Positions 4,360 to 30,141 of a stretch of 31,467 nt of DNA are shown one piece after another. Source of the stretch: a virus. Lineage: Duplodnaviria > Caudoviricetes. How positions within the stretch are numbered: position 1 is the first letter of the stretch; the number at the start of each line of letters is the position of its first letter. The DNA lies in IMG/VR virus record IMGVR_UViG_3300008003_000032, positions 1-31,467 of that record. One strand, written 5' to 3'. The notes below the pieces were generated by a model. That model worked only from the letters and a program-made list of their open reading frames with translations. It did no database searches and was not told where the DNA came from. A program made the translations under genes and the position numbers.

Positions 4360-4366
4360 TACGACA

Positions 4367-4500
4367 TAATTAAGCCGAAGTTGAAAGGTTATCGTAACTT
4401 GTAACTTACCGTATCCGGGTTCGACTCCCGGTCCGTACACAATTTATGTGCGGGCGTGTTGGAACGTTGAAAAACATCTTTCACATTACTTGCTTAATTA
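4367..4500 (+). ncRNA. yrlA: Y RNA (YrlA-like) copy 1 with permuted tRNA module
   Basis: TAATTAAGC/GCTTAATTA terminal stem, bulged-C GCCGAAG/CTTGC helix, GGTTATCG, T arm CCGGG-TTCGACT-CCCGG, loop-closed acceptor TCCGTACA/TGTGCGGG, degenerate D arm. Confidence 0.8.
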
Positions 4501-4503
4501 CTT

Positions 4504-4587
4504 GGACCCGTGTGCTGAGCGGCCGAAAGCACCCGGCTCTTAACCGGAGATACCACACCGTAGGTTCGAATCCTACCGGGTCCACCA
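4504..4587 (+). tRNA. trnK: tRNA-Lys(CTT) with long variable region
   Basis: GGACCCG/CGGGTCC + ACCA, loop CTCTTAA, D arm GCT-GAGCGGCCGAA-AGC, 11-nt variable region. Confidence 0.9.
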
Positions 4588-5263: not shown

Positions 5264-5355
5264 ATCATATATTGTTATACTAGTATAAAGGTAACATATC
5301 CGGCTGAGATCTGGAAGATACGGTAGTCGAGTGCCGTGTAGAACAATGTGATTTA
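5261..5355 (+). ncRNA. ATATATTG/CAATGT-closed RNA, copy B: tRNA-like cloverleaf (GAG loop) on an extended acceptor helix, no CCA
   Basis: TAAATCAT-AT-ATTGTTATAC / GTAGAACAAT-GTGATTTA helix; TCCGG-CTGAGAT-CTGGA arm; ACGGTA-GTCGAG-TGCCGT T-like arm. Confidence 0.6.
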
Positions 5356-6224: not shown

Positions 6225-7001
6225 ATGAAACCAAATAAATTAAAAATTTTTAGAGATACGGTTAGTAAATATTCTTTGGCTCGCACTTATCCAAATGGCA
6301 GGGCTAGATTAAAGGACACATACAAGTTATTTTTATTTACAATAGATCATTCTGGATCTCCATATAATACATATAAAATTAAAAAAGAACTTTGGCAAGA
6401 TTGGTTTTCTCATAATTTTGCCAAAATATACAATTATATTGCTGCCGCTAATTATTTTGATTTCGAGGAAGCGGTAATTTATCATGGGTTTATGGGTGAT
6501 AGATTAAAAACTCGAATATATCTTACAAGTAAAAACTACAATAAATTGAGAAGATTTAGGGATAAATTTAAACTTCATTTGAATATACTTCAGACTGGTA
6601 AATTTGACTATACCAATATTAATGCAAAATGTATTGACGGCCATTGTTATAACGTATTTACTACCGAAGTTAATGACGTATCGGAAGTGAAAAAAGCGGG
6701 CCCTGATATAAAATTATTCCCCTACCATGTTAAAATACTTAACTTTTTTCAATCTTCACTTCATAATATTATAAAAAATTCGTTTAGAACTACCGTTTTT
6801 GAGTCGCCTGCTATTAATAATAGTTTCAATAATCATTTTTATTTTAATTCTAACGCGGATTTGGAAAACTTTTTGATGTTGATTCTCTTATCCTCTGATA
6901 GCACTGTGAATTATGAGTGTATAGATCACACGGAGACGCCCGTTGGCAGCTTGTGTGACTATTTACATAATAAAACACGTAGAATCTCGACGGGGCTGTA
7001 G
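6225..7001 (+). CDS. hypothetical protein
   Basis: 258-aa ORF, AAGGA RBS. Confidence 0.7.
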   Translation: MKPNKLKIFRDTVSKYSLARTYPNGRARLKDTYKLFLFTIDHSGSPYNTYKIKKELWQDWFSHNFAKIYNYIAAANYFDFEEAVIYHGFMGDRLKTRIYLTSKNYNKLRRFRDKFKLHLNILQTGKFDYTNINAKCIDGHCYNVFTTEVNDVSEVKKAGPDIKLFPYHVKILNFFQSSLHNIIKNSFRTTVFESPAINNSFNNHFYFNSNADLENFLMLILLSSDSTVNYECIDHTETPVGSLCDYLHNKTRRISTGL

Positions 7002-7089: not shown

Positions 7090-7163
7090 GGGCTTGGCTA
7101 TGGGGTAGCGGATGATCCTTGCAAGATCGTTGTCAATGGGTTCGATTCCCATTAGGTCCACCA
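7090..7163 (+). tRNA. trnA: tRNA-Ala(TGC)
   Basis: GGGCTTG/TAGGTCC with G3:U70, A73, loop CTTGCAA, ACCA; compact D arm. Confidence 0.85.
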
Positions 7164-7754: not shown

Positions 7755-7828
7755 GCTGCCGTAGCTCAATTGGTAAGAGGCGCTCAGAGTAATTTGAGAA
7801 GTTAGAGGTTCGATTCCTCTCGGGGGCA
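7755..7828 (+). pseudogene. pseudo-tRNA (Thr-like body, 6-nt anticodon loop)
   Basis: TAGCTCAATTGGT D arm and GGTTCGATTCC T arm intact; loop AGTAAT, acceptor mismatch, ends ACTA. Confidence 0.7.
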
Positions 7829-8704: not shown

Positions 8705-8777
8705 AGCCCGGACACTTGATAGTGGGCAAGTCCTCATAAGACTTCGCAAATGGGTTTGATTCCCATCCAGGCTACCA
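8705..8777 (+). tRNA. divergent tRNA with CAT anticodon (Met or Ile2)
   Basis: AGCCCGG/CCAGGCT + ACCA, AAGTC-CTCATAA-GACTT, reduced D arm CACT-TGAT-AGTG. Confidence 0.7.
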
Positions 8778-8819
8778 ATTAAGACATAAATACTACATAC
8801 TTCTTTTTTTGGAGAAATT

Positions 8820-9038
8820 ATGTGGTATATTAAAGAAACAATTTCAAACAAATATGTTTACAAATGTTTTAGTGACTATTGTATTACAACCGGCAATTTA
8901 AACCAAGCGATAGTTTTTTCCAAACTGCCAGAAGCTAAAAAAATGGCAGAAATACTACAAAATGAATATGATGCTAAATGGAATCACCATTCAGAAAGAT
9001 GTAATAAAAAAATATTTAAAACTATTTCTGTAGGTTGA
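8820..9038 (+). CDS. hypothetical protein
   Basis: 72 aa, GGAG RBS; resembles 9206..9481. Confidence 0.7.
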   Translation: MWYIKETISNKYVYKCFSDYCITTGNLNQAIVFSKLPEAKKMAEILQNEYDAKWNHHSERCNKKIFKTISVG

Positions 9039-9205
9039 CATTATTTTATAATAATATAAAGTATGGTAGAAGACAAACATGGTATGTCATTCAGTGGTGT
9101 ATTTTGGCTATTAATTAATGGTTTTTCTATATTAATTAATTCTAAAATCTCTAAATTGGGTTAGTATTTATCCGATCTTCACTTTTATTGGCAAAGGAGT
9201 TATTT

Positions 9206-9481
9206 ATGTGGGTAGTTCGTTGCGCTATTACCGGCGAATATATTCTTAATTCCCAATCCAAGGCTGCTCTAGAAAATAAAACAGATTCAAAATATGCTAA
9301 AATATATAGTTCTTTATCTGGAGCAAAATCTGCAAGGGGAAATATCCAATCATTATACGATTATTGGCATGGTAGCCATTTAACGCCATGTGATATGGGA
9401 TATGCTGAATATATAGCACACGGCAAAAACTATATGTTAAGAAATTTTGAAGTTATTGAAGTAACCGTTAATTTAAATTAA
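9206..9481 (+). CDS. hypothetical protein
   Basis: AAGGAG RBS before ATG 9206. Confidence 0.7.
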   Translation: MWVVRCAITGEYILNSQSKAALENKTDSKYAKIYSSLSGAKSARGNIQSLYDYWHGSHLTPCDMGYAEYIAHGKNYMLRNFEVIEVTVNLN

Positions 9482-9587
9482 AACCCGACGATATCAGCTG
9501 ATAATAAATCGTTGAAATTTGTGTCTCATCGTTATAAAAATAAGGTTGACGAATGAATATAATTATCGTATTATAAATATACTAAAT

Positions 9588-9660
9588 GGAGGATGCGCCA
9601 GATGGGAAGGCATCACGTTTACACCGTGACATTAACCGTGTTCGATTCACGGATCCTCTA
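9588..9660 (+). tRNA. trnV: tRNA-Val(TAC)
   Basis: GGAGGAT/ATCCTCT, TCACG-TTTACAC-CGTGA; ends ACTA. Confidence 0.88.
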
Positions 9661-9663
9661 CTA

Positions 9664-9733
9664 AGAAAGCCGAATGAAATAGGTTATCGTTTATTGAACA
9701 AACCCAAATGTCTATTTCAACCATTTGCTTTCT
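9664..9733 (+). ncRNA. Y RNA copy 2, minimal, without tRNA module
   Basis: AGAAAGC-C-GAA-TGAAATAGG-TTATCG ... TCTATTTCA-ACCATTT-GCTTTCT; same carrier stem, ~20-nt interior. Confidence 0.75.
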
Positions 9734-9737
9734 AATT

Positions 9738-9812
9738 GGACGCATAGCTCAGCGGGAGAGCGGAGTCTTAACACGGCTTAGGTCCTAGGTTCAATCCCTA
9801 GTGTGTCCACCA
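9738..9812 (+). tRNA. trnV: tRNA-Val(AAC)
   Basis: GGACGCA/TGTGTCC + ACCA, GAGTC-TTAACAC-GGCTT, canonical D and T arms. Confidence 0.9.
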
Positions 9813-9831
9813 ACAAAAAAAAGGTATTGTT

Positions 9832-10008
9832 ATGAAAAATCGTAATTTCAAAAAACAGTTCAAAGCAATAAAAACAATTTTACGAAAAGAACAAGAAGAA
9901 AGACATGCTGGGTTAGACTGGGCCAAATGGGGCCTAAGTAGAGAAGAAGTAGTTGAAAACGTTGATAATTATAATAAAAAAGGTATAATTAGAAGGCTTA
10001 ACGTATAA
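9832..10008 (+). CDS. small basic hypothetical protein (58 aa)
   Basis: ATG 9832 to TAA 10008, AAGG upstream; below the ORF-track cutoff. Confidence 0.5.
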   Translation: MKNRNFKKQFKAIKTILRKEQEERHAGLDWAKWGLSREEVVENVDNYNKKGIIRRLNV

Positions 10009-10093
10009 TTTTTTAAAAATTTTGGTAGACATTTCAAAAAATCAACTTATATTAAGATGAGATGAGACGTGAATAATTAATGTGTGACTTAAT

Positions 10094-10169
10094 GCTCCTG
10101 TAGTATAATGGCTTATTACAAGGTTTTGGTAGAACTTAGACGACAGTTCGATTCTGTCCTGGAGCACCA
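10094..10169 (+). tRNA. trnT: tRNA-Thr(GGT)
   Basis: AGGTT-TTGGTAG-AACTT, GTTCGATTC, ACCA. Confidence 0.9.
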
Positions 10170-10199
10170 TGTAGTTGTACTTAGAAAAGGAACTGTATA

Positions 10200-10418
10200 A
10201 TGAATGCAACTATATTAAGTTTTTTAGCATGTTTAAGAACTGACCCTGCAGTTTGTGAAACAGTTAGTATTAGATTTGATCCTGCAGAAGTAAGTGTAGA
10301 ACGATGTGAATTAGCGTTTCAACAGGTTTTGGCAGGTTGGGTGGGGCAAAACCCAAAATATAGAATTAAAGGAAACATTAATTGCAAATCATCTGAAGAT
10401 GTTGATATTCCAATTTAA
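10200..10418 (+). CDS. small Cys-containing protein of a type seen in alphaproteobacteria
   Basis: ACL..P..CE..C...Q..LA.W...P.Y.I...C pattern; AAGGA RBS. Confidence 0.7.
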   Translation: MNATILSFLACLRTDPAVCETVSIRFDPAEVSVERCELAFQQVLAGWVGQNPKYRIKGNINCKSSEDVDIPI

Positions 10419-10425
10419 CTAAATT

Positions 10426-10558
10426 GGTCAGGTGGCAGAGTGGCTTATTGAAATTAATTTTACACAAAGAAAATCAATCTAAATATTCAAATAGTTTAAT
10501 TACACTAGATGAATTGCTTGACAGAATAAATATATTTAATGTAACATATGATTTTTAA
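10426..10558 (+). pseudogene. deletion scar: 5' fragment of tRNA-Ser fused to 3' end of an endonuclease-like ORF
   Basis: GGTCAGGTGGCAGAGTGGCTTATTG resembles the start of tRNA-Ser at 12623; followed by startless KLILHKENQSKYSNSLITLDELLDRI..F*. Confidence 0.6.
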
Positions 10559-10559
10559 T

Positions 10560-10634
10560 GGTTAGATGCCGGAGTAGTTACGGGACAGTCTGCAAAACTG
10601 GTCAACGCGGGTGCAAATCCCTCTCTAACCTCCA
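10560..10634 (+). tRNA. trnC: tRNA-Cys(GCA)
   Basis: GGTTAGA/TCTAACC + TCCA (U73), loop CTGCAAA. Confidence 0.9.
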
Positions 10635-10767
10635 ATACAAGACAAATAGAGCGGGTTATCGATTCTGTGAAAATCCTTGTCCGAGTTCGAATCTCGGCGG
10701 CAGTTGAAAAACTGTTGTGATGTAATGATAGCATAACAAAACATCCAATCTAACACCTTGCTTGTAT
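10635..10767 (+). ncRNA. yrlA: Y RNA (YrlA-like) copy 3 with permuted tRNA module, GTG anticodon hairpin
   Basis: ATACAAG/CTTGTAT stem, GGTTATCG, GATT-CTGTGAA-AATC, CCGAG-TTCGAAT-CTCGG, acceptor CGGCAGTT-GAAA-AACTGTTG, D arm ATGT-AATGATA-GCAT, AAAACATC. Confidence 0.8.
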
Positions 10768-10775
10768 TAAACTAT

Positions 10776-10912
10776 ACATAAGCCGAATAAAAAAGGTTAT
10801 CGCATTATAAGCCTCTATTCCAAGTTCAATTCTTGGTCACCCCACCAAATTATCGGGTGATAGTGTAACGGTAACACGGAGAAAAACATCTTTTTTAACT
10901 ACTTGCTTATGT
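10776..10912 (+). ncRNA. yrlA: Y RNA (YrlA-like) copy 4 with permuted tRNA module retaining internal ACCA
   Basis: ACATAAGC/GCTTATGT stem, GCCGAA, GGTTATCG, 3' tRNA half 10802-10847, 5' half 10854-10881. Confidence 0.85.
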
Positions 10913-10915
10913 TAT

Positions 10916-10990
10916 GCGCGATTAACTCAGTGGTAGAGTACAGTCCTGATAAGACTGGAGTCGCTGGTTCAAGTCCAGCATCGCGCACCA
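10916..10990 (+). tRNA. trnI: tRNA-Ile(GAT)
   Basis: GCGCGAT/ATCGCGC + ACCA, CAGTC-CTGATAA-GACTG. Confidence 0.95.
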
Positions 10991-11059
10991 ATAAAATACC
11001 TTGACACCCATCAATAAAAATCGTATCTATAAGATAGTTTTATAGCAAGGATATAATAC

Positions 11060-11506
11060 ATGGAACCCTATGAATATATTTGTAATACAAACCCTATTCG
11101 AATAGTTGGCGGTTTTACATTATATTTTGATAATGATGCAACACTTTTTTATTCAAAGTCTAAGAAAAAATCCATTAGATTCCATAAATTAAAAGAAAAT
11201 TATATTGGCTATACTAAGTATTATCTATCAACATATATCAAGCGTTATACTGCTAATACACACGGAGCCAATATAGTAAAATGCCCAAGGTGCGAAAGTA
11301 CCGGAGATTTGGCTAAATTTTGGCGAGTAAATTGCAACACTTGTGGCCTTTGGTTAGAAACCGATGAAACCTTTTTATATACTTGGGGTGATATACTAAA
11401 AGAAGTTAAGGGTTATTTTTCAAATAAATATTATTATAACAATGAAGAAATTTCTCTTAAAGAATATAACGAATTAGCGGTATATTATAGACTAGAAAGA
11501 ATGTAA
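11060..11506 (+). CDS. hypothetical protein with zinc ribbon
   Basis: CPRC..CNTC; AAGGA RBS; TTGACA at 11001. Confidence 0.7.
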   Translation: MEPYEYICNTNPIRIVGGFTLYFDNDATLFYSKSKKKSIRFHKLKENYIGYTKYYLSTYIKRYTANTHGANIVKCPRCESTGDLAKFWRVNCNTCGLWLETDETFLYTWGDILKEVKGYFSNKYYYNNEEISLKEYNELAVYYRLERM

Positions 11507-11656
11507 ATTACCAATAATTTATATTTACTCTATTATACCATGCATCGATAATAGCATAATAGAAATTCTAGGGTCAAATTTAATGCTACCTTGAAAAAGT
11601 ATTTTGCCCATTTTATCTACAAATTAATATTTATATCATAAATCATAAAAAAGAAT

Positions 11657-11732
11657 GGGGTCTTAGCTCACCTGGTAGAGCGTTTCACTGGCAGTGAAAA
11701 GGTAAAGGGTTCGAGTCCCTTAGGCTCCACCA
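11657..11732 (+). tRNA. trnA: tRNA-Ala(GGC)
   Basis: GGGGTCT/AGGCTCC with G3:U70, TTTCA-CTGGCAG-TGAAA, ACCA. Confidence 0.95.
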
Positions 11733-11805
11733 ATTTAAATTTTGATTTTAAATTCATTTTACTATATTAATATACTATGTTTAATATAACAAAAAAGAGG
11801 ATTTT

Positions 11806-12252
11806 ATGGATTTTAATGTCAAATATTCCATGGGGTTAGTTTTTGATACTAGTAAAAACTATGTTATGCTACTTCAAAAAACAAAACCCGATTTTTTAAA
11901 AGGTAAGTGGAATGCGCCGGGAGGTAAAATTGAAGAAAATGAAACTGCACTAGATTGTTGTGTGCGAGAAGTTTACGAAGAAACAGATGTTAAAATTTTT
12001 AGTGACCACTGGACTCACATATTTCATTTAGAAAATATGCCTAAAAAATATTCATTAGATATATTTTATACCGTTTCTGATTTAATTTTTACAGCTAGAA
12101 CTACCACTGAAGAGCAAGTTCAAATAGTAAAGTTGGATAATATAGACATGTATCCATTGGCTACGAATATCAACTGGTTTATTGAATTCGCTAGAGAAAG
12201 AAGTAACTCATTCATGTTACCCATCTGTATAGATGATTTTGGTGGTGATTAA
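11806..12252 (+). CDS. Nudix hydrolase (MutT-like)
   Basis: Nudix box GGKIEENETALDCCVREVYEETD. Confidence 0.92.
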   Translation: MDFNVKYSMGLVFDTSKNYVMLLQKTKPDFLKGKWNAPGGKIEENETALDCCVREVYEETDVKIFSDHWTHIFHLENMPKKYSLDIFYTVSDLIFTARTTTEEQVQIVKLDNIDMYPLATNINWFIEFARERSNSFMLPICIDDFGGD

Positions 12253-12274
12253 CAATTAAATAGGGAAATGTATA

Positions 12275-12577
12275 ATGACTAGATATTTGATAAGTTTTGG
12301 TAACGAAGGTCTTGAAACGGTTGTAAATCTTGATGAGCTAAAAGCGCAGGATGATGATTTTTTGGCCGCAAAACTCGCAGACCTTGAAAACAAAAATAAG
12401 CAAAGCCTGCCGTCTGGGCAGGTAATGCAGATGTTACAGTTACGCTATAGAATTAATATGCACCGTTGCATCAAAAGTTATATTTTGGAATACGATGGAC
12501 AAAAAAACGATATATGGGACCATGAAAAATTTATTATCAAACTTCTGAAAAAAGAAGGCAAAGAAATACGAATTTAA
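12275..12577 (+). CDS. hypothetical protein
   Basis: 100-aa ORF. Confidence 0.7.
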   Translation: MTRYLISFGNEGLETVVNLDELKAQDDDFLAAKLADLENKNKQSLPSGQVMQMLQLRYRINMHRCIKSYILEYDGQKNDIWDHEKFIIKLLKKEGKEIRI

Positions 12578-12622
12578 GTTGACACTAAGTCTGTATGTGC
12601 TAATATATAAATACTAAAAAAT

Positions 12623-12713
12623 GGATGGGTGGCAGAGCCCGGCTTATTGCACCGGTCTTGAAAACCGGCGAAGTTAATAGCTTCCGTGAGTTCAAATCTC
12701 ACCCCATCCGCCA
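12623..12713 (+). tRNA. trnS: tRNA-Ser(TGA)
   Basis: GGATGGG/CCCATCC + GCCA, CCGGT-CTTGAAA-ACCGG, long variable arm. Confidence 0.96.
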
Positions 12714-12751
12714 AACTACTTAAACTACTTAAACTACTTAAACTACTTAAA
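12713..12751. repeat. 9-bp tandem repeat (AAACTACTT)x4
   Basis: read directly; starts at the tRNA-Ser 3' end. Confidence 0.9.
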
Positions 12752-12767
12752 ATAATACCATTGTATT

Positions 12768-12853
12768 GGAACGGGGGCAGGATGGTAATGCAGCAGATTG
12801 CTAATCTGTAACACCGAAAGGTGTACTGGGTTCGACTCCCAGTCGTTCCGCCA
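12768..12853 (+). tRNA. trnS: tRNA-Ser(GCT)
   Basis: GCAGA-TTGCTAA-TCTGT, ACACC-GAAA-GGTGT variable arm, GCCA. Confidence 0.95.
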
Positions 12854-12948
12854 ATACGCTAAACGAGAGATAAAAATGATTAATTTTAGATACCTAAATT
12901 CTTTTTCTACTCGATGTTTTAGAAATAACACATCTGGAGTAAAAAGTA

Positions 12949-13173
12949 ATGGGCACAAAAACAAGATTTCAATTAAGCCATAAAATTGTTTTGAAAATCA
13001 CACATAGGCAAATAGCATACGATATGTTGTTGTGGTGTTATCAAAACAGTGACATATTTTATTCATCTTTTAATTTTGATGACATAGATTCTCTTTATGA
13101 TATTGAAATAATTTCCTTTGAGAATTCTAATGATGCATTAAGTTTTACACTTACCTTTATTGGATTGGAATAA
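12949..13173 (+). CDS. small hypothetical protein (F-x4-DA-x2-F-x-L family)
   Basis: C-terminal FENSNDALSFTLTF. Confidence 0.6.
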   Translation: MGTKTRFQLSHKIVLKITHRQIAYDMLLWCYQNSDIFYSSFNFDDIDSLYDIEIISFENSNDALSFTLTFIGLE

Positions 13174-13319
13174 AATTAAATAAGCCGAAGTATTAGGATT
13201 ATCGTAAAACTCCGGGTCGTGAGTTCAAATCTCACTTTCTGCACTAATACGCAGAAGTAGCTCAGCGGGTAGAGCAGAAGTCTAAAACAGCCTTTTACAA
13301 CCCTTGCTTATTTAATTTT
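13172..13319 (+). ncRNA. yrlA: Y RNA (YrlA-like) copy 5 with complete permuted tRNA
   Basis: 14-bp terminal stem AAAATTAAATAAGC/GCTTATTTAATTTT, GCCGAAG, GATTATCG, 3' half 13204-13246, 5' half 13251-13283. Confidence 0.85.
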
Positions 13320-13899
13320 GGAATAATATCCCAGCGAATACCGGTTGGTATAGTGCCATAATATTGGTATATTTTGATATATCTTCATCTGTGGGATTTC
13401 TAGTCAATGCCCCAAAATATCCAACTACTTCATTGCGTTGGTTTACCAACGGACAACGTAAGTCAACATCAAATTCACCATCATTTATTCCGGGTAATTC
13501 TATACGTATTCCCACACACTTGCCCTGCAGCGTTTCATGTATTCGTGGGATACTATCCAATGGTATATTTTGATAAGTTGCTAAACGAGAATTAAATTCT
13601 TTTCTTATTGCGTCGTCATCTGTATTCTTTCGCCAAAAGAATACTTCATTAACCAATGGCGGGTGAAATTCGTCATTTTGCCATCTTAATCCATTGTGAA
13701 AAAGAGAAATATAAATTAAATCCAAATTAATAGTATCGCCCAATTCGTCTAATTTTTCTCTAATAATTGGTGCTTTTTCGGCAAATCGTTCCGGGTCATA
13801 TGTAGTGGATAGATAGTAATTTTTTTCTTTATACAACCAATAACTTGAAATGACGAACCCCGTCAAAAAAATTGATAAAAGTATTATTATATATTTCAT
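13312..13899 (-). CDS. membrane-anchored GAF-like protein (T4 holin T-like), paralog 2
   Basis: N-terminal TM, SLFHNG, GKCVG..RCPL..VVGYFG. Confidence 0.65.
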   Translation of the reverse strand: MKYIIILLSIFLTGFVISSYWLYKEKNYYLSTTYDPERFAEKAPIIREKLDELGDTINLDLIYISLFHNGLRWQNDEFHPPLVNEVFFWRKNTDDDAIRKEFNSRLATYQNIPLDSIPRIHETLQGKCVGIRIELPGINDGEFDVDLRCPLVNQRNEVVGYFGALTRNPTDEDISKYTNIMALYQPVFAGILFQN

Positions 13900-15539: not shown

Positions 15540-15968
15540 TTATTTTGGTTGAGTAGGCCAAACAACATTATCAGGAAATTCTAATTGATTGGTAATATCT
15601 CTCAATTGTTGCCTGTAACTAGCCCATTTTAATTTGGTTGATTTGGGCACATCAGGGAGTTGTGTCCAATCACTTGTTGTTAATAACATGTTTCTTTGAT
15701 ATTTTATTGATTGAATTTTTTCTTCTTTAATTTCATCTTTAGTTGGGTATTTAAAATTACTTATTTTTCCAGTAATTTTATTTTGTAATATATCTGCAAT
15801 AATGTTGTCACATAATCCGCCGCCATTTTGTCTGGCGCAATATTCAACGCTTTCATATGAATCGGTACCATCAAAATCAATATCAACCATAACAAGAAAA
15901 GCATTTTCTTCTTCGTTTAATTTTTGTACATTTCTTATATTTTTGTATTTCATAATATTCCTTTTCAA
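15540..15968 (-). CDS. tail fibre assembly chaperone
   Basis: RNMLLTTSDWTQLPDVP..WASYRQQLRDIT..WPTQP signature, directly after the fibre gene. Confidence 0.9.
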   Translation of the reverse strand: MKRNIMKYKNIRNVQKLNEEENAFLVMVDIDFDGTDSYESVEYCARQNGGGLCDNIIADILQNKITGKISNFKYPTKDEIKEEKIQSIKYQRNMLLTTSDWTQLPDVPKSTKLKWASYRQQLRDITNQLEFPDNVVWPTQPK

Positions 15969-17881
15969 GCAGTTCTTTGGACCAATACGCCGTGATCGCC
16001 CGAAAAACTAGTAAATCCCCGACAACGCCAAACGCCCGTCAAAATAGCCCCAGTGCCAATTATTGAAAATTTACCAGCAGCCCCCAATCTAAGTGTTACT
16101 TGAACATTTCTGTTAAATGTTATTCCGTTTTTATCACCCGGATCACCCCACATTAATGTTGTTCCAACTGGATATGTTATTTGGTCAGCGGATGTGCCAT
16201 TATAAACTAACGAAGATTCTCGTAAATATCTTGCATCACCTTTTTCTCTGGTAATAACAGTTACGGTATTTACTGCTGCTGTACCTGGTTCATCAATAAC
16301 TCCGGCAGTTGCCCCATTAACAGAAAATGATAAATTTTTACCATTAGCTGATACATTAATGCCAACGACACCACTCGCGCCAGTAAACCTTATGGCGGGC
16401 GCCCCTGCAGATCCGTTATTTTGCACAAATAACCGGTTAACATTAAAATCATTAGTGGTTTTACCGCTCGTTAATGCGTATCTCGCATCGCCTTTTTCTC
16501 TGGTAATAACTGTTGTAGTAGAAGGCGAAGTAGTTCCGGCGGGTTGAATCATAGCGGCTAATACACCACTAACTCCTATTGCAATACCCCTAACTAAGTT
16601 TTGAACACCATCAAAGAATATATGTTTATTTGAAATATTGCCAATCGAAACAGAAGTAAAGCTTACGGATTGATTCAACTGTGCGTATCTCGCATCGCCA
16701 TTTAATTTATTAACAATAGATATATTAGAAGTTAGACTACCGTTTTCTTCCATTTGATACCGTGCTACTGTGTCTTTTGCGAATTGCAACTGCTCGCCAC
16801 TTACACCAGCACCTCTAGAAATTTTCCATGAATTGGCAGAGGTAATTAACGTGACTTGGTTTTGGGCAGCTCCTACTATGGTGATTCCTGACGAAAATGT
16901 ATTAGATGCGCTTAATTGTGCGTATCTTGCATCGCCCTTTTCTCTAGTAATAATAGTTGTGGTAGCAGGAGCGGCAGTCCCAACAGGATGAACTATCCCA
17001 GCCAATACACCACTTACTGCTATTGCTAACCCACGTGTTCCGTTCTGATTGCCGTCCGACAATAAGTGTCTATCGGAAACCAACCCAATTGCCACACTAT
17101 TGAAGTTACCTACGCCATCAACAAGAGTATATCTTGCATCGCCTTTTTCTCTGGTAATAATAGTTCTAGAATTTGGTATTGCGGTTCCGGCGGCATCTAT
17201 TACTGCGGCTTGCAATTGTCTAATTCTAAATTCATGCTGCGATGCTCCCGATGCTACCAATGTAATAAAATAATCATTTGACTGTGTTGTCCCGGTTGAA
17301 TTAACTGTACGTATACCAAATTGATTATTTTCTCTGTAAATATCAGTTCTATAATGTGTTGCGGGAGCGTCTGTATCAATCAACGTTAGTTTTGGATTAG
17401 TCCCGTAATGTATTACCGCATTATTTGATATTCGTAGTGTTTCAATTCCACCAGTAGAAAATCCTACACTATCTGATTCGGGCGAAAATAAACCGGTATC
17501 AATATCACCAAACCAACTGAACGACGGAGTACCGGCTGTATCAGCAAAATTACCATAAATTCTATTAGCTATAACACTTCCGCCAGCAGAAACATCAGTA
17601 AAGTTAACTGTCCCTGCAAATGTTGATGGGCCGGTTACAGTTAATGCAGAAGTAGTAATAGAGTTCTTCACGTCTATTGACCCAGAAACAAAAATATTTC
17701 CGTTAACACTGATCGAAGCAGTGCCTATTCGTAATGCAGATCTAACACCATCGCCATCTGTAAGAAATCTAGGTGTTGATTGCATACCCGTTCCAAAAAC
17801 AGAAGCGGCTGTGGTCCTTGCCGAAAGCCCGACCAAAAATCTGTAACTTTCTCGTATCTGTCTACCACGTAAATCTGCCAT
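15965..17881 (-). CDS. tail fibre protein
   Basis: G/S/T/A-rich, PSFSWFGDIDTGLFSP module, five (I/V)TREKGDARY-type repeats, C-terminal LTGVWRCRG tip motif. Confidence 0.85.
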   Translation of the reverse strand: MADLRGRQIRESYRFLVGLSARTTAASVFGTGMQSTPRFLTDGDGVRSALRIGTASISVNGNIFVSGSIDVKNSITTSALTVTGPSTFAGTVNFTDVSAGGSVIANRIYGNFADTAGTPSFSWFGDIDTGLFSPESDSVGFSTGGIETLRISNNAVIHYGTNPKLTLIDTDAPATHYRTDIYRENNQFGIRTVNSTGTTQSNDYFITLVASGASQHEFRIRQLQAAVIDAAGTAIPNSRTIITREKGDARYTLVDGVGNFNSVAIGLVSDRHLLSDGNQNGTRGLAIAVSGVLAGIVHPVGTAAPATTTIITREKGDARYAQLSASNTFSSGITIVGAAQNQVTLITSANSWKISRGAGVSGEQLQFAKDTVARYQMEENGSLTSNISIVNKLNGDARYAQLNQSVSFTSVSIGNISNKHIFFDGVQNLVRGIAIGVSGVLAAMIQPAGTTSPSTTTVITREKGDARYALTSGKTTNDFNVNRLFVQNNGSAGAPAIRFTGASGVVGINVSANGKNLSFSVNGATAGVIDEPGTAAVNTVTVITREKGDARYLRESSLVYNGTSADQITYPVGTTLMWGDPGDKNGITFNRNVQVTLRLGAAGKFSIIGTGAILTGVWRCRGFTSFSGDHGVLVQRTA

Positions 17882-21213: not shown

Positions 21214-21672
21214 ATGAAAAAAATGATTCTTGGATCAAAACTTGACATCGTTTCTTTGGGTGATTATGACGTTATCACAAAAGAAGGGTTAAATGCAAGA
21301 GATTGCCATCTATTGCAGGATTGTGATTTCGTTTACGCGGGAAATCATTTAATTTTTGATTTTTGGGGGAGTAACGAGATCTTAAACCAAAAATTGATCA
21401 TTGATAGTTGCGCCGATGCGGTAATTGAAGCCGGGGCCACAATCCTTCACAGACATTTTCATGAATTTGGCGAGGGTATGGGCCTCACGGGGGTTTTGGT
21501 ATTAAGTGAATCACATCTAAGTATCCACACATGGCCAGAAATTAATCTTATGACCTTTGATATCTATATGTGCGGAGATGCAGATCCCGCAAAAGCATTA
21601 AACATCTTGCGGGATCGTATTAGACCAAAGAAAATTACAATGATGAACCTCAAAAGAGGTGCATTTAAATAG
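21214..21672 (+). CDS. speD: S-adenosylmethionine decarboxylase proenzyme
   Basis: LSESHLSIHTWPE pyruvoyl cleavage motif, DIYMCG. Confidence 0.95.
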   Translation: MKKMILGSKLDIVSLGDYDVITKEGLNARDCHLLQDCDFVYAGNHLIFDFWGSNEILNQKLIIDSCADAVIEAGATILHRHFHEFGEGMGLTGVLVLSESHLSIHTWPEINLMTFDIYMCGDADPAKALNILRDRIRPKKITMMNLKRGAFK

Positions 21673-26647: not shown

Positions 26648-27547
26648 ATGAAATTTGAAATTCCGGCCTTTGACGAAGTAGTTGTAGCATTATCTGGCGG
26701 CGCGGATAGTGTTGCTCTCCTTCATTATCTAGTTAAGAACTCTAACATTAAAATTCACGCTGTTCATATTAATCATAATATTCAAGAACACAGTTGTTCT
26801 TGGGTAAGTTTTTGCAAAAACATGTGTATTAGTCTTGGAGTAGAATTTACCGCAATCAATTTGCATCTTGATAAGAAAACAGAAAACGAAGCCCGTAATA
26901 AAAGATATGAAGCACTGAAATCGTTTGGGTTACCCATTTTTACGGGGCATCATGCGGATGATCAAACTGAAACATTTTTTCTAAAAATTATGCGAGGAGC
27001 CGGCGTTTCTGGTCTAAAATGTATGAAACAAATTGCTCAGCATAACGATTACACCATTGTTCGTCCCATGCTGGAAGTTCATAAAATTGATATTATCAAT
27101 TATTGCTATGATAACGGATTAGAGTTTGTTAAAGATCCGTCAAACGAAGCTAATTACTATGATCGAAATTATTTTAGAAATGAAGTATTAACTAAAATCG
27201 ATATTCGTTTTCCTGCTTTTAGAAAAGCTCTTTCAAAAAGTATTAAAAATATGCAAGATGCTGATGAATGTCTGCGTGATCTAGCCGACCTTGACTTGAT
27301 TTCGGTGATGGATAACGAATCTATCTCAATCGAACTAATTCGTGAAAAAAATATGAGCGAAGCTCGCATTAGAAATATGCTGGTATATTACATGCAAACC
27401 CATAATCTTACTTTAAATTGTGAAGAATTAGTTGCATTTTCTAAAAAAATCCTTACTATTAGTTATGACGGAAGATTGGAGCTAATTGGGCGTGGCAAAA
27501 CAATTAAAAAACTCAAACAGACAGGAAAAAGACTTTTTCTATATTAA
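26648..27547 (+). CDS. tilS: tRNA(Ile)-lysidine synthetase
   Basis: SGGADS PP-loop, GHHADDQTET, IVRPML, DPSN..RNYFR; own TTGACA promoter at 26599. Confidence 0.95.
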   Translation: MKFEIPAFDEVVVALSGGADSVALLHYLVKNSNIKIHAVHINHNIQEHSCSWVSFCKNMCISLGVEFTAINLHLDKKTENEARNKRYEALKSFGLPIFTGHHADDQTETFFLKIMRGAGVSGLKCMKQIAQHNDYTIVRPMLEVHKIDIINYCYDNGLEFVKDPSNEANYYDRNYFRNEVLTKIDIRFPAFRKALSKSIKNMQDADECLRDLADLDLISVMDNESISIELIREKNMSEARIRNMLVYYMQTHNLTLNCEELVAFSKKILTISYDGRLELIGRGKTIKKLKQTGKRLFLY

Positions 27548-29317: not shown

Positions 29318-29665
29318 ATGACGCAAAAAATCTGGGAATGTAAAATAGGTAGTATAAATATTAACCTACTACCGGATAGTGCTGATAATCCAATGCGTCG
29401 AGCCGTTGAAAAGGCATTTTTATCAACAGTAAAAAAAGAAAGTGATTTTTGTTTTTCTGGGTGGGGGGGACAGATAACCGAATCAGAGCTGGCGGCGATT
29501 GAATGTCGAGAACCCTGCGCTATCAAATCCGCTATTGAATTAATTGAACAATTTGAAATAGTCAATGAAGGTATATCCAAAATTAATAGACATAAAATAA
29601 ATGTAATAATAAAAGAATTAAAAGAAATCATATTAATAGAAAAATTAACGTATGGTTTTAAATGA
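29318..29665 (+). CDS. hypothetical protein
   Basis: IWECKIG..AD.PMR.AV..FSGWG. Confidence 0.7.
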   Translation: MTQKIWECKIGSININLLPDSADNPMRRAVEKAFLSTVKKESDFCFSGWGGQITESELAAIECREPCAIKSAIELIEQFEIVNEGISKINRHKINVIIKELKEIILIEKLTYGFK

Positions 29666-30141
29666 GAAATGTTATTACATTCACTAAGGTATGTTTACCG
29701 TATGGTTGGTTGGGAAATATGAGCCCCCACCCAGTAACCTACAAAGATATTAGATATCCAACTGCCGAACACTTGTTTCAGGCGTTAAGGTTTTCTGAAG
29801 ACCATATCATTCAAACAGAAATAATCAAACACAACTCACCAATGAGAGCAAAAATGATGTGCAAACCTTATTTAAACGAATGTATCATTGCACCTAGAAG
29901 TGAAAAAGACATTGAAAATATGTTAATGGTGTTATTATTAAAGATTGATACACATTTAGATTTGCGAGAAAAGTTAGCAAATACCAACGATGATATTATT
30001 ATAGAAGACGTAACTAAAAGGCCAAATGAATCCGGATTATATTGGGGCGCCGCATGGAATGGCACGGAATGGCATGGTACTAATATGTTGGGGCAATGTT
30101 GGATGAGTATTAGATCTCTCATTACAGGGGCTGTTAAATGA
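29662..30141 (+). CDS. NADAR (YbiA-like) family protein
   Basis: YGWLGNMS..YPTAEHLFQA.RF..IIED..YWG..G.N.LG..WM.IR. Confidence 0.88.
   Translation: MRNVITFTKVCLPYGWLGNMSPHPVTYKDIRYPTAEHLFQALRFSEDHIIQTEIIKHNSPMRAKMMCKPYLNECIIAPRSEKDIENMLMVLLLKIDTHLDLREKLANTNDDIIIEDVTKRPNESGLYWGAAWNGTEWHGTNMLGQCWMSIRSLITGAVK

Follow-up and report, generated by a model that had tools for sequence, protein, structure and literature searches.

The 31,467-base viral record IMGVR_UViG_3300008003_000032, analyzed here in its entirety (hereafter the window; CheckV completeness 19%), carries at approximately 10777-10911 a Y RNA gene that we term copy D. The gene is of the YrlA type, and its central part, a tRNA-like module (10802..10881), runs in the rotated tRNA order 30-76, linker, 1-29. 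The reading we favor, at a probability of roughly 55%, is that copy D encodes a YrlA-type Y RNA that is likely cut into two paired pieces and acts as a partner of a phage Ro60 protein rather than as a decoding tRNA. An initial annotation of this region had proposed a Ro-stem RNA carrying a rotated tRNA, and this picture is now supported by a model of the RNA family, by covariation, and by the motifs of the Y stem. The strong evidence that the apparent design of copy D exceeds chance is comparative and does not lie in the tRNA call that ARAGORN can be made to return for it.

All parts of copy D lie on the + strand, and the outermost of them form the Y RNA stem. The 5' strand of the lower stem (10777..10783) pairs with 10905-10911 in the minimum free energy (MFE) fold, and the homologous helix covaries in 58 relatives; the 5' strand of the upper stem (10788..10797) pairs with 10888-10897 in the same fold. 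At 10782..10787 stands GCCGAA (repeat family D11), an instance of GNCGAA, which PMC4201824 defines as a motif of Y RNAs in bacteria and which is a proposed Ro60 contact. The motif has no trailing G in copy D, where UA comes next; two of the paralogs described below, A and E, read GCCGAAG. A TTATC linker (10797..10801), whose UUAU at 10797-10800 supplies the YUAY element of YrlA, leads into the tRNA module; it is invariant in our alignment, but the search pattern demanded TTATC. The module itself opens with GC, a 7-nucleotide (nt) anticodon-like loop ATTATAA, and GC (10802..10812, equivalent to tRNA nt 30-40 in the fold and by ARAGORN), with TAT at 10806-10808, followed by nt 41-43 (CTC, 10813..10815), which pair over the junction with 10879-10881. 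A variable loop TATT (10816..10819), in which T48 can pair with A15, precedes the T arm CCAAG / TTCAATT / CTTGG (10820..10836), evident in the sequence, the fold, and the family model. The 3' strand of the acceptor stem, TCACCCC (10837..10843), ends in the discriminator A73 (10844) and an encoded CCA (10845-10847), so that 10844..10847 reads ACCA at a position where CCA is enriched in the family. A 6-nt linker, AATTAT (10848..10853), separates this end from the 5' strand of the acceptor stem, CGGGTGA (10854..10860, with C1 at 10854); the linker would be removed by RNase P at 10853/10854 and by 3' trimming, as predicted from the YrlA of Mycobacterium smegmatis. The fold then gives the D arm GTGT / AACGGTA / ACAC (10863..10877) and G26 with nt 27-29 (GAG; 10878..10881), the latter also placed by the pairing in relatives. 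AAAAAC then serves as a linker to the closing part of the gene, where the Y stem has its 3' strands (ATCTTTTTTA, an internal loop, and GCTTATG with the CTTGC motif; 10882..10911 with the linker, repeat family D13), supported by the fold and by covariation.

The MFE fold of copy D (z score -2.09; 7 of 200 shuffles as stable) forms the Y stem in two parts (7 + 10 pairs), places the 7-nt loop on a GC:GC mini-hairpin, and contains a CUCU:GGAG helix of 4 pairs, an acceptor of 6 pairs, and the T and D arms. The positions given in the initial annotation all match the letters, including G10802 as the G of TTATCG, the GGAG that ends at 10881, and the AAAAAC that starts at 10882. Joining 10854-10881 to 10802-10847 (28 + 46 nt) yields the 74-nt tRNA with a TAT anticodon that had been proposed, which ARAGORN recognizes from 1 to 74 as tRNA-Ile(tat). 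The anticodon stem of this tRNA has the five perfect pairs across the junction that were claimed for it (G27:C43, A28:T42, G29:C41, G30:C40, and C31:G39), and C1:C72, also pointed out at that stage, is the sole mismatch of an acceptor with 6 pairs otherwise. The standard nucleotides of a tRNA are present as well: U8, A14, G18 and G19, T54, T55, C56 and A58, A15:U48, A73, and CCA.

The tRNA-Ile(tat) call depends on an in-script circular permutation of copy D; in genomic order (10777-10912), neither ARAGORN nor the Rfam tRNA model returned anything. When the 17-nt anticodon arm was shuffled, ARAGORN still called a tRNA in 124 of 500 cases, and shifts of the junction were tolerated also. In-script permutations of 93 relatives gave a tRNA in 68, with 42 join variants tried per relative. 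Because of the 124 calls on shuffled arms and the 42 join variants, ARAGORN is not used here as evidence for the anticodon arm.

Relatives of copy D were collected with two patterns. The first (5' motif, GRTTATC, T loop) matched 68 IMG/VR loci holding 77 distinct elements. The second, modeled on the copy D junction (TTATC, GC, WT-NNN-RA, GC, T loop), matched 39 IMG/VR loci and at least 120 metagenome loci, with a total of 121 distinct elements among the matches listed; all counts given below for the sub-family, that is, for RNAs whose Y stem is attached at tRNA position 29|30, rest on these matches. The earliest IMG/VR pattern (111 loci) produced mostly chance matches, with about a dozen bearing the 3' motif or T loop, and was set aside. 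A covariance model, R1, was built on 58 rotated-order homologs from other contigs, the window copies being excluded. Copy D matches R1 over its full length (model positions 1-153) at 107.7 bits (E 6.9e-24); the top ordinary tRNA of the window scores 22.4 bits (E 8.9e-4). RNAalifold applied to the 58 homologs recovers the Y stem, the GC:GC hairpin, the pairing of 41-43 with 27-29, the T arm, a 7-pair acceptor, and the D arm, and finds compensatory changes in 25 of the 29 consensus pairs. The junction-spanning part of the anticodon stem covaries across homologs: among 29 cleanly parsed elements of the first 35, nt 27-29 and 41-43 are paired in 78 of 87 cells, compared with 14-43 in slid registers and 46.8 +/- 4.2 with shuffled partners, where none of 2000 trials reached 78. 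Together, the R1 score and the covariation show that the Y stem truly interrupts the anticodon stem at 29|30 and that this arrangement is conserved.

Copy D is one of five such genes in the window. A repeat analysis detected four copies of a 31-nt 5' motif (...AAGCCGAA, 7 nt, GGTTATCG) and three copies of a 3' motif (AAAAC...CTTGCTTA), and five units, A to E, were read from the sequence, each with 5' and 3' ends that pair into a stem in which GCCGAA lies opposite CUUGC. The other four are likewise on the + strand. Paralog A (4361..4508, unit approximately 4370-4500; R1 52.0 bits, E 9.2e-11) has a Y stem and a permuted tRNA module with ACAA for ACCA, and paralog E (13171..13322, unit approximately 13180-13310; R1 89.3 bits, E 1.5e-19) has ACTA in this place. 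Paralog B (9656..9743, unit approximately 9665-9735; R1 35.2 bits, E 8.5e-7) consists in its fold of a Y stem and TTATCG without a tRNA module and is YrlB-like. Paralog C (10628..10768, unit approximately 10637-10765; R1 38.9 bits, E 1.2e-7) has a degenerate GACAAA, an anticodon-like hairpin with a CTGTGAA loop, and a closed acceptor loop. At position 73-76 the paralogs read ACAA (A), ACTA (E), and TGAA, ACCA being confined to copy D. That copy D is a decaying, non-functional duplicate is very improbable: the C1:C72 mismatch and the degenerate motif of paralog C point that way, but copy D has the best R1 score of the five units and every one of its helices is intact. The stretch 10600-11000 is also identical in contigs from four further DNA runs, which shows only that the population is undiverged and leaves no natural variation to read; a look-up of RNA datasets for 10500-11100 listed none.

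The association with Ro60 is drawn from the relatives. A Ro60 (TROVE) gene is present in 14 of the 15 relatives' records examined, including all 10 of those at least 90% complete. The gene adjoins the RNA in two records (G009 and G010) and lies approximately 1 to 4 kb away in two more (G012, and G014 across its ends); in others the distance is tens to hundreds of kb. TROVE proteins are scarce in jumbo phages, occurring in a small subset only according to a review (PMC7824862), which makes the co-occurrence of RNA and Ro60 meaningful.

In the initial annotation, absence of CCA conservation among homologs had been named as a result that would speak against a two-piece, chargeable tRNA; CCA does in fact recur in homologs, and precisely at this place. 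Among the matches listed, 20 of the 120 members of the sub-family have NCCA at 73-76, where composition predicts 1.56 (approximately 13-fold enrichment); at eight other offsets CCA occurs 0-3 times each, and the binomial p value for 73-76 is approximately 2e-16 when relatedness is ignored. By group, again among the matches listed, it is present in 16 of 65 rotated-order and 3 of 27 ordinary-order members (the latter are described below), and in the broader family of the first pattern it is present in 7 of 77. In short loci that also contain an ordinary tRNA, elements tend to encode CCA where that neighbor does (2x2 counts 5, 4, 6, 31). The resemblance of the linker to the spacers between tRNA genes, another early observation, is borne out by its length, 6 nt versus 7 nt (Glu-Leu) and 10 nt (Arg-Leu) in the two most tightly spaced tRNA pairs, and by its letters, with an A after CCA and an AT before +1, as in 14 of 23 tRNA leaders.

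Cleavage of copy D within the ACCA-AATTAT linker is likely by analogy with M. smegmatis YrlA. PMC4201824 describes in vivo cleavage of that RNA by RNase P at the 5' end of its tRNA-like part, and in vitro cleavage by M1 RNA. CCA is acquired by the other half, Rsr brings down both halves, and the cleavage is ascribed to a full 7-bp acceptor stem. In the scheme we favor, copy D would be transcribed together with the neighboring tRNAs, RNase P would cut before C10854, as in M. smegmatis YrlA, and exonucleases would trim the 3' end back to the CCA at 10847. The two pieces, which are predicted to co-fold at -30.9 kcal/mol (singly, -7.4 and -5.3), would be held together by 27 intermolecular pairs. 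The resulting L-shaped tRNA body would show a tRNA-like surface to a tRNA-binding partner, and the stem would hold Ro60.

Several observations weigh against this reading. No TROVE match was found in the 31,467-base record, which is 19% complete. YrlA genes are recognized in part by a position within approximately 4 kb of the Ro60 (TROVE) gene on the same strand (PMC4201824), and copy D has no such neighbor in this record. The Rfam YrlA model (RF02553, gathering score 69 bits) gave no match to copy D at E <= 10, nor did cmscan return one, and it touches paralog E alone, at 24.7 bits over model positions 25-83; on account of this miss, copy D is filed as YrlA-like by its architecture and not as a member under the Rfam model. 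CCA is lacking in 100 of 120 sub-family members among the matches listed, and of the four distinct homologs with an ATTATAA loop copy D alone has it, the other three being without. Finally, the copy D acceptor has 6 pairs plus C1:C72, as against the 7-bp stem credited for cleavage in M. smegmatis.

Some of these points fit a one-piece Y RNA, in which ACCA and AATTAT would be an unselected closing loop of the acceptor, left over from tandem tRNAs, in the manner of Salmonella YrlA; the latter has no free CCA, no anticodon loop, and a closed 6-bp acceptor (10.1101/312249). We consider this possible, though on balance rather unlikely. Most relatives do have short closed loops (8 nt or less in 38 of 65 permuted members, many in tetraloop style, e.g., CGAAAG), the ACAA, ACTA, and TGAA of the paralogs look like drift, CCA is found in only one of the four TAT-loop homologs, and the 1:72 pair of copy D is mismatched. 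The same preprint expects most YrlA RNAs to be poor RNase P substrates and proposes their origin from a dimeric tRNA. An unselected loop is hard to reconcile with the roughly 13-fold enrichment of CCA at exactly 74-76, with the tendency of CCA to follow the encoding habits of neighboring tRNA genes, and with a linker that mimics the local style of tRNA trailer and leader.

The strong form of the initial annotation went further and envisaged an aminoacylated two-piece RNA of Ile identity (A73, UAU), in effect a charged tRNA on a Ro stem. All standard tRNA features are present in the module, and the discriminator fits the amino acid of the anticodon in 62 of the 101 elements with resolved topology (44.7 +/- 3.7 in shuffles, with 0 of 5000 reaching 62), although this agreement is inflated by relatedness among the sequences and rests on a general table of the usual bacterial rule. 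Individual cases include C73 in 6 of 10 elements with His anticodons, U73 in both of those with Gly, and A73 in all five with Ile (copy D among them); one ordinary-order relative, L214, has a G-1 besides. Ordinary-order relatives also have naturally free acceptor ends, and possible aminoacylation of the cleaved M. smegmatis YrlA was raised in the study that described it (PMC4201824). We nevertheless find charging of copy D doubtful. Some bodies with a Leu anticodon have a variable loop of only 5 nt, and anticodon and CCA vary among members with nearly the same acceptor: L206 and copy D have near-identical acceptors (TCACCCG/CGGGTGG versus TCACCCC/CGGGTGA) and differ in carrying TGG with AAAA versus TAT with ACCA. 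The C1:C72 mismatch and the exit of the Y stem at 29|30, near the area bound by anticodon-reading synthetases, also speak against it, and the covered portion of the YrlA literature holds no charging data for a Y RNA.

A decoding need for the UAU loop is not apparent in this phage either. The window encodes a PP-loop family protein of 299 amino acids (aa) at 26648-27544 (+), which matches PF01171 at E 1e-47 and belongs to the family of TilS, the tRNA(Ile)-lysidine synthase. TilS is the usual bacterial route for reading AUA. With such a protein the phage would read AUA through a CAU tRNA and would have no need to decode with the UAU "anticodon" found in the Y RNA, a further argument against a charged tRNA.

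The sub-family also includes genes in ordinary tRNA order. In at least 27 of the 121 elements among the matches listed, the acceptor 3' strand has its matching 5' half upstream and not downstream, so that the gene reads as a tRNA in which a hairpin of approximately 50 nt separates nt 29 from nt 30. This hairpin begins with the Y 3' strand, turns in a small loop, and returns along the Y 5' strand, which carries the GNCGA motif. Examples are L218 (88-220 and 227-352, +), L201, L209, L220, L186, and L214, with anticodons CAT, TAT, GTG (with G-1/C73), GAT, and TGG. ARAGORN made no call on the ordinary-order elements, and Ro60 is present in all five of the ordinary-order records examined. The MFE fold of L218:88-220 is better than its shuffles (z -2.03) and that of L218:227-352 is not (z -0.65). 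Copy D does not belong to this group, as its acceptor 3' strand pairs solely with the downstream CGGGTGA. Judged from their sequences, the rotated and ordinary forms are circular permutations of one design, and the existence of the ordinary-order form means that a free-ended tRNA body on a Ro-type arm occurs as a single transcript, which is the product predicted for cleaved copy D. In one record (G002), at an element with a GTC loop (L029/L193), a single 3' half is flanked on each side by the same 5' half (GGGGGAT...). In this tandem array the unit works in either frame, rotated or ordinary, and the array is possibly a snapshot of one form turning into the other.

The resemblance of ordinary-order relatives to tRNAs with an insert of approximately 50 nt at 29|30 raises the question of whether the rotated genes are permuted tRNA genes, from which the Y stem would be excised, the ends joined (GGAG to GCATTATAA), and the circle opened in the linker to give a translating tRNA-Ile(UAU). 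Joining at TTATC|G and G|AAAAAC does restore a perfect anticodon arm, and the junction motifs are conserved. We give this very little credence. No bulge-helix-bulge is apparent by inspection of the fold and the alignment, in which no dedicated search was made; as read there, three helices meet at the junction and two 3-nt linkers lie opposite one another, in place of two bulges 4 bp apart. RtcB is encoded in one of ten near-complete relatives, which lends no support to a phage-encoded ligation step. The stem to be discarded bears the Ro60-binding motif in a family whose records encode Ro60 in 14 of 15 cases, the sealed acceptor stems of many relatives could never yield a tRNA, and characterized YrlA RNAs retain the stem (PMC4201824).

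A broader interpretation would take both orders together: large phages would encode widespread tRNA-Y RNA chimeras, each a complete tRNA body with an anticodon loop, an identity-consistent discriminator, often CCA, and a Ro60 arm at 29|30, the free-ended forms of which (cleaved copy D among them) would be aminoacylated and would tether Ro60 to charged tRNA or to its recognizers, whether enzymes, factors, or host anticodon nucleases. As a whole, charging included, we regard this as quite unlikely. The combination of an anticodon-like loop, a matching discriminator, and CCA in a sixth of members suggests that, in phages at least, what is recognized in the module is a specific tRNA and not a generic L-shape. 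The sub-family supplies concrete candidates on which cleavage by RNase P, repair of the CCA end, charging, and binding by synthetases can be tested, and the ordinary-order relatives bear on the origin of YrlA, which may have arisen by a shift of gene boundaries in arrays of tRNAs with Y hairpins and not only from dimeric tRNAs. As tRNA finders miss both forms, the annotation of phage tRNA arrays under-reports them.

The genomic setting of copy D is an AT-rich viral contig (G+C 33%) with a dense tRNA array, in which ARAGORN finds 23 tRNAs and Rfam adds a few. NCCA is encoded by 17 of these 23, the remainder having CAA, CTA, or similar. Domains in the window's open reading frames (ORFs), including the TilS-family, GIY-YIG, and endonuclease I domains, identify the setting as a phage of bacteria. 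Further tRNA-like sequences missed by ARAGORN lie at 695-767, 1618-1688, 1698-1767, 5274-5345, and 7755-7828 (Rfam tRNA, 33-43 bits), and a T arm plus ACCA can be seen by eye at approximately 7100-7163 and at 8705-8784, which ARAGORN also missed, the latter with a CTCATAA loop (CAT anticodon). Among or beside the tRNA genes are a YqeY-like domain (PF09424, 5793-6209), a NUDIX domain (11806-12252), a NADAR domain (29662-30141), and an S-adenosylmethionine decarboxylase (21214-21672). A 637-aa ORF at 15965-17881 (-) contains four to six internal repeats of approximately 80 nt (families D3, D6, and D7) and has no Pfam match; it adjoins a tail assembly chaperone gene (15540-15965) and is for this reason probably a tail fiber. 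A promoter-like site at 10518-10547 (+) (TTGACA, 18 nt, TAACAT; a consensus match only) stands directly before tRNA-Cys, which may be transcribed as a unit with Y RNA C, Y RNA D, and tRNA-Ile. In a scan of 9400-11700 by consensus matching, 19 promoter-like sites were found, compared with 11.3 +/- 3.5 in shuffles, and no terminator-like site. Megablast of 9000-13000 against GenBank phages returned a single 47-nt tRNA-Ser match and no close phage relative, and related-locus searches with the ORFs at 11060-11503 and 6225-6998 returned no close phage relative.

While the YrlA family is known, the copy D variant is set apart by its anticodon-like loop, its stem attachment at 29|30, its encoded CCA and linker, its multiple copies within a tRNA array, and its ordinary-order sister form. 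In full-text literature searches and in the passages covered of the papers cited here, no description of this variant was found. Several known systems offer points of comparison. The permuted gene of the two-piece transfer-messenger RNA (tmRNA) of alphaproteobacteria, to which the initial annotation had likened copy D, gives two pieces, which by pairing build a tRNA-like domain whose CCA end is free. Unlike this RNA, copy D has no tag reading frame, and its partner would be Ro60, not SmpB; an ARAGORN search of the window for tmRNA was negative, and the single match of the Rfam tmRNA_permuted model (15.2 bits, E 4) lies at 9775-9929, outside copy D. In the permuted tRNAs of the red alga Cyanidioschyzon merolae, as in archaeal split and intron-containing tRNAs, a splicing endonuclease acts at a bulge-helix-bulge and ligation follows. 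Copy D resembles the algal genes in that the 3' half precedes the 5' half, with CCA and a linker between them and the break in the anticodon arm; unlike them, it has flanks that form a Ro60-type stem, belongs to a bacterial phage, and presents no bulge-helix-bulge apparent by inspection.

The closest likeness is to the YrlA RNAs of bacteria and mycobacteriophages. Bacterial Y RNAs carry GNCGAAN0-1G near the 5' end, resembling the GGUCCGA contacted by Ro60, and YUAY, and have T, acceptor-like, and D stem-loops that mimic tRNA (PMC4201824); for YrlA, a tRNA-binding effector of the tRNA-like domain has been predicted (10.1101/312249). Copy D shares with YrlA the end-paired stem, GNCGAA, YUAY, the order variable region, T arm, acceptor-like stem, D arm, the tRNA tertiary nucleotides, and the linkage to Ro60, here seen in relatives. 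It differs in keeping a 7-nt anticodon-like loop with the stem at 29|30, where Salmonella YrlA has no anticodon loop, in its encoded CCA and spacer-like linker, and in lying in a tRNA array with four paralogs and with no Ro60 gene within 31 kb. Within this family, M. smegmatis YrlA is a closer analog of copy D than two-piece tmRNA. That RNA has an acceptor of 7 pairs and receives its final CA once cleavage and nibbling are over, whereas the CCA of copy D is genomic and its 1:72 pair is mismatched. In its processed form, M. smegmatis YrlA is a two-piece Y RNA made by RNase P with a CCA end, which is the very mechanism that the initial annotation had proposed for copy D.

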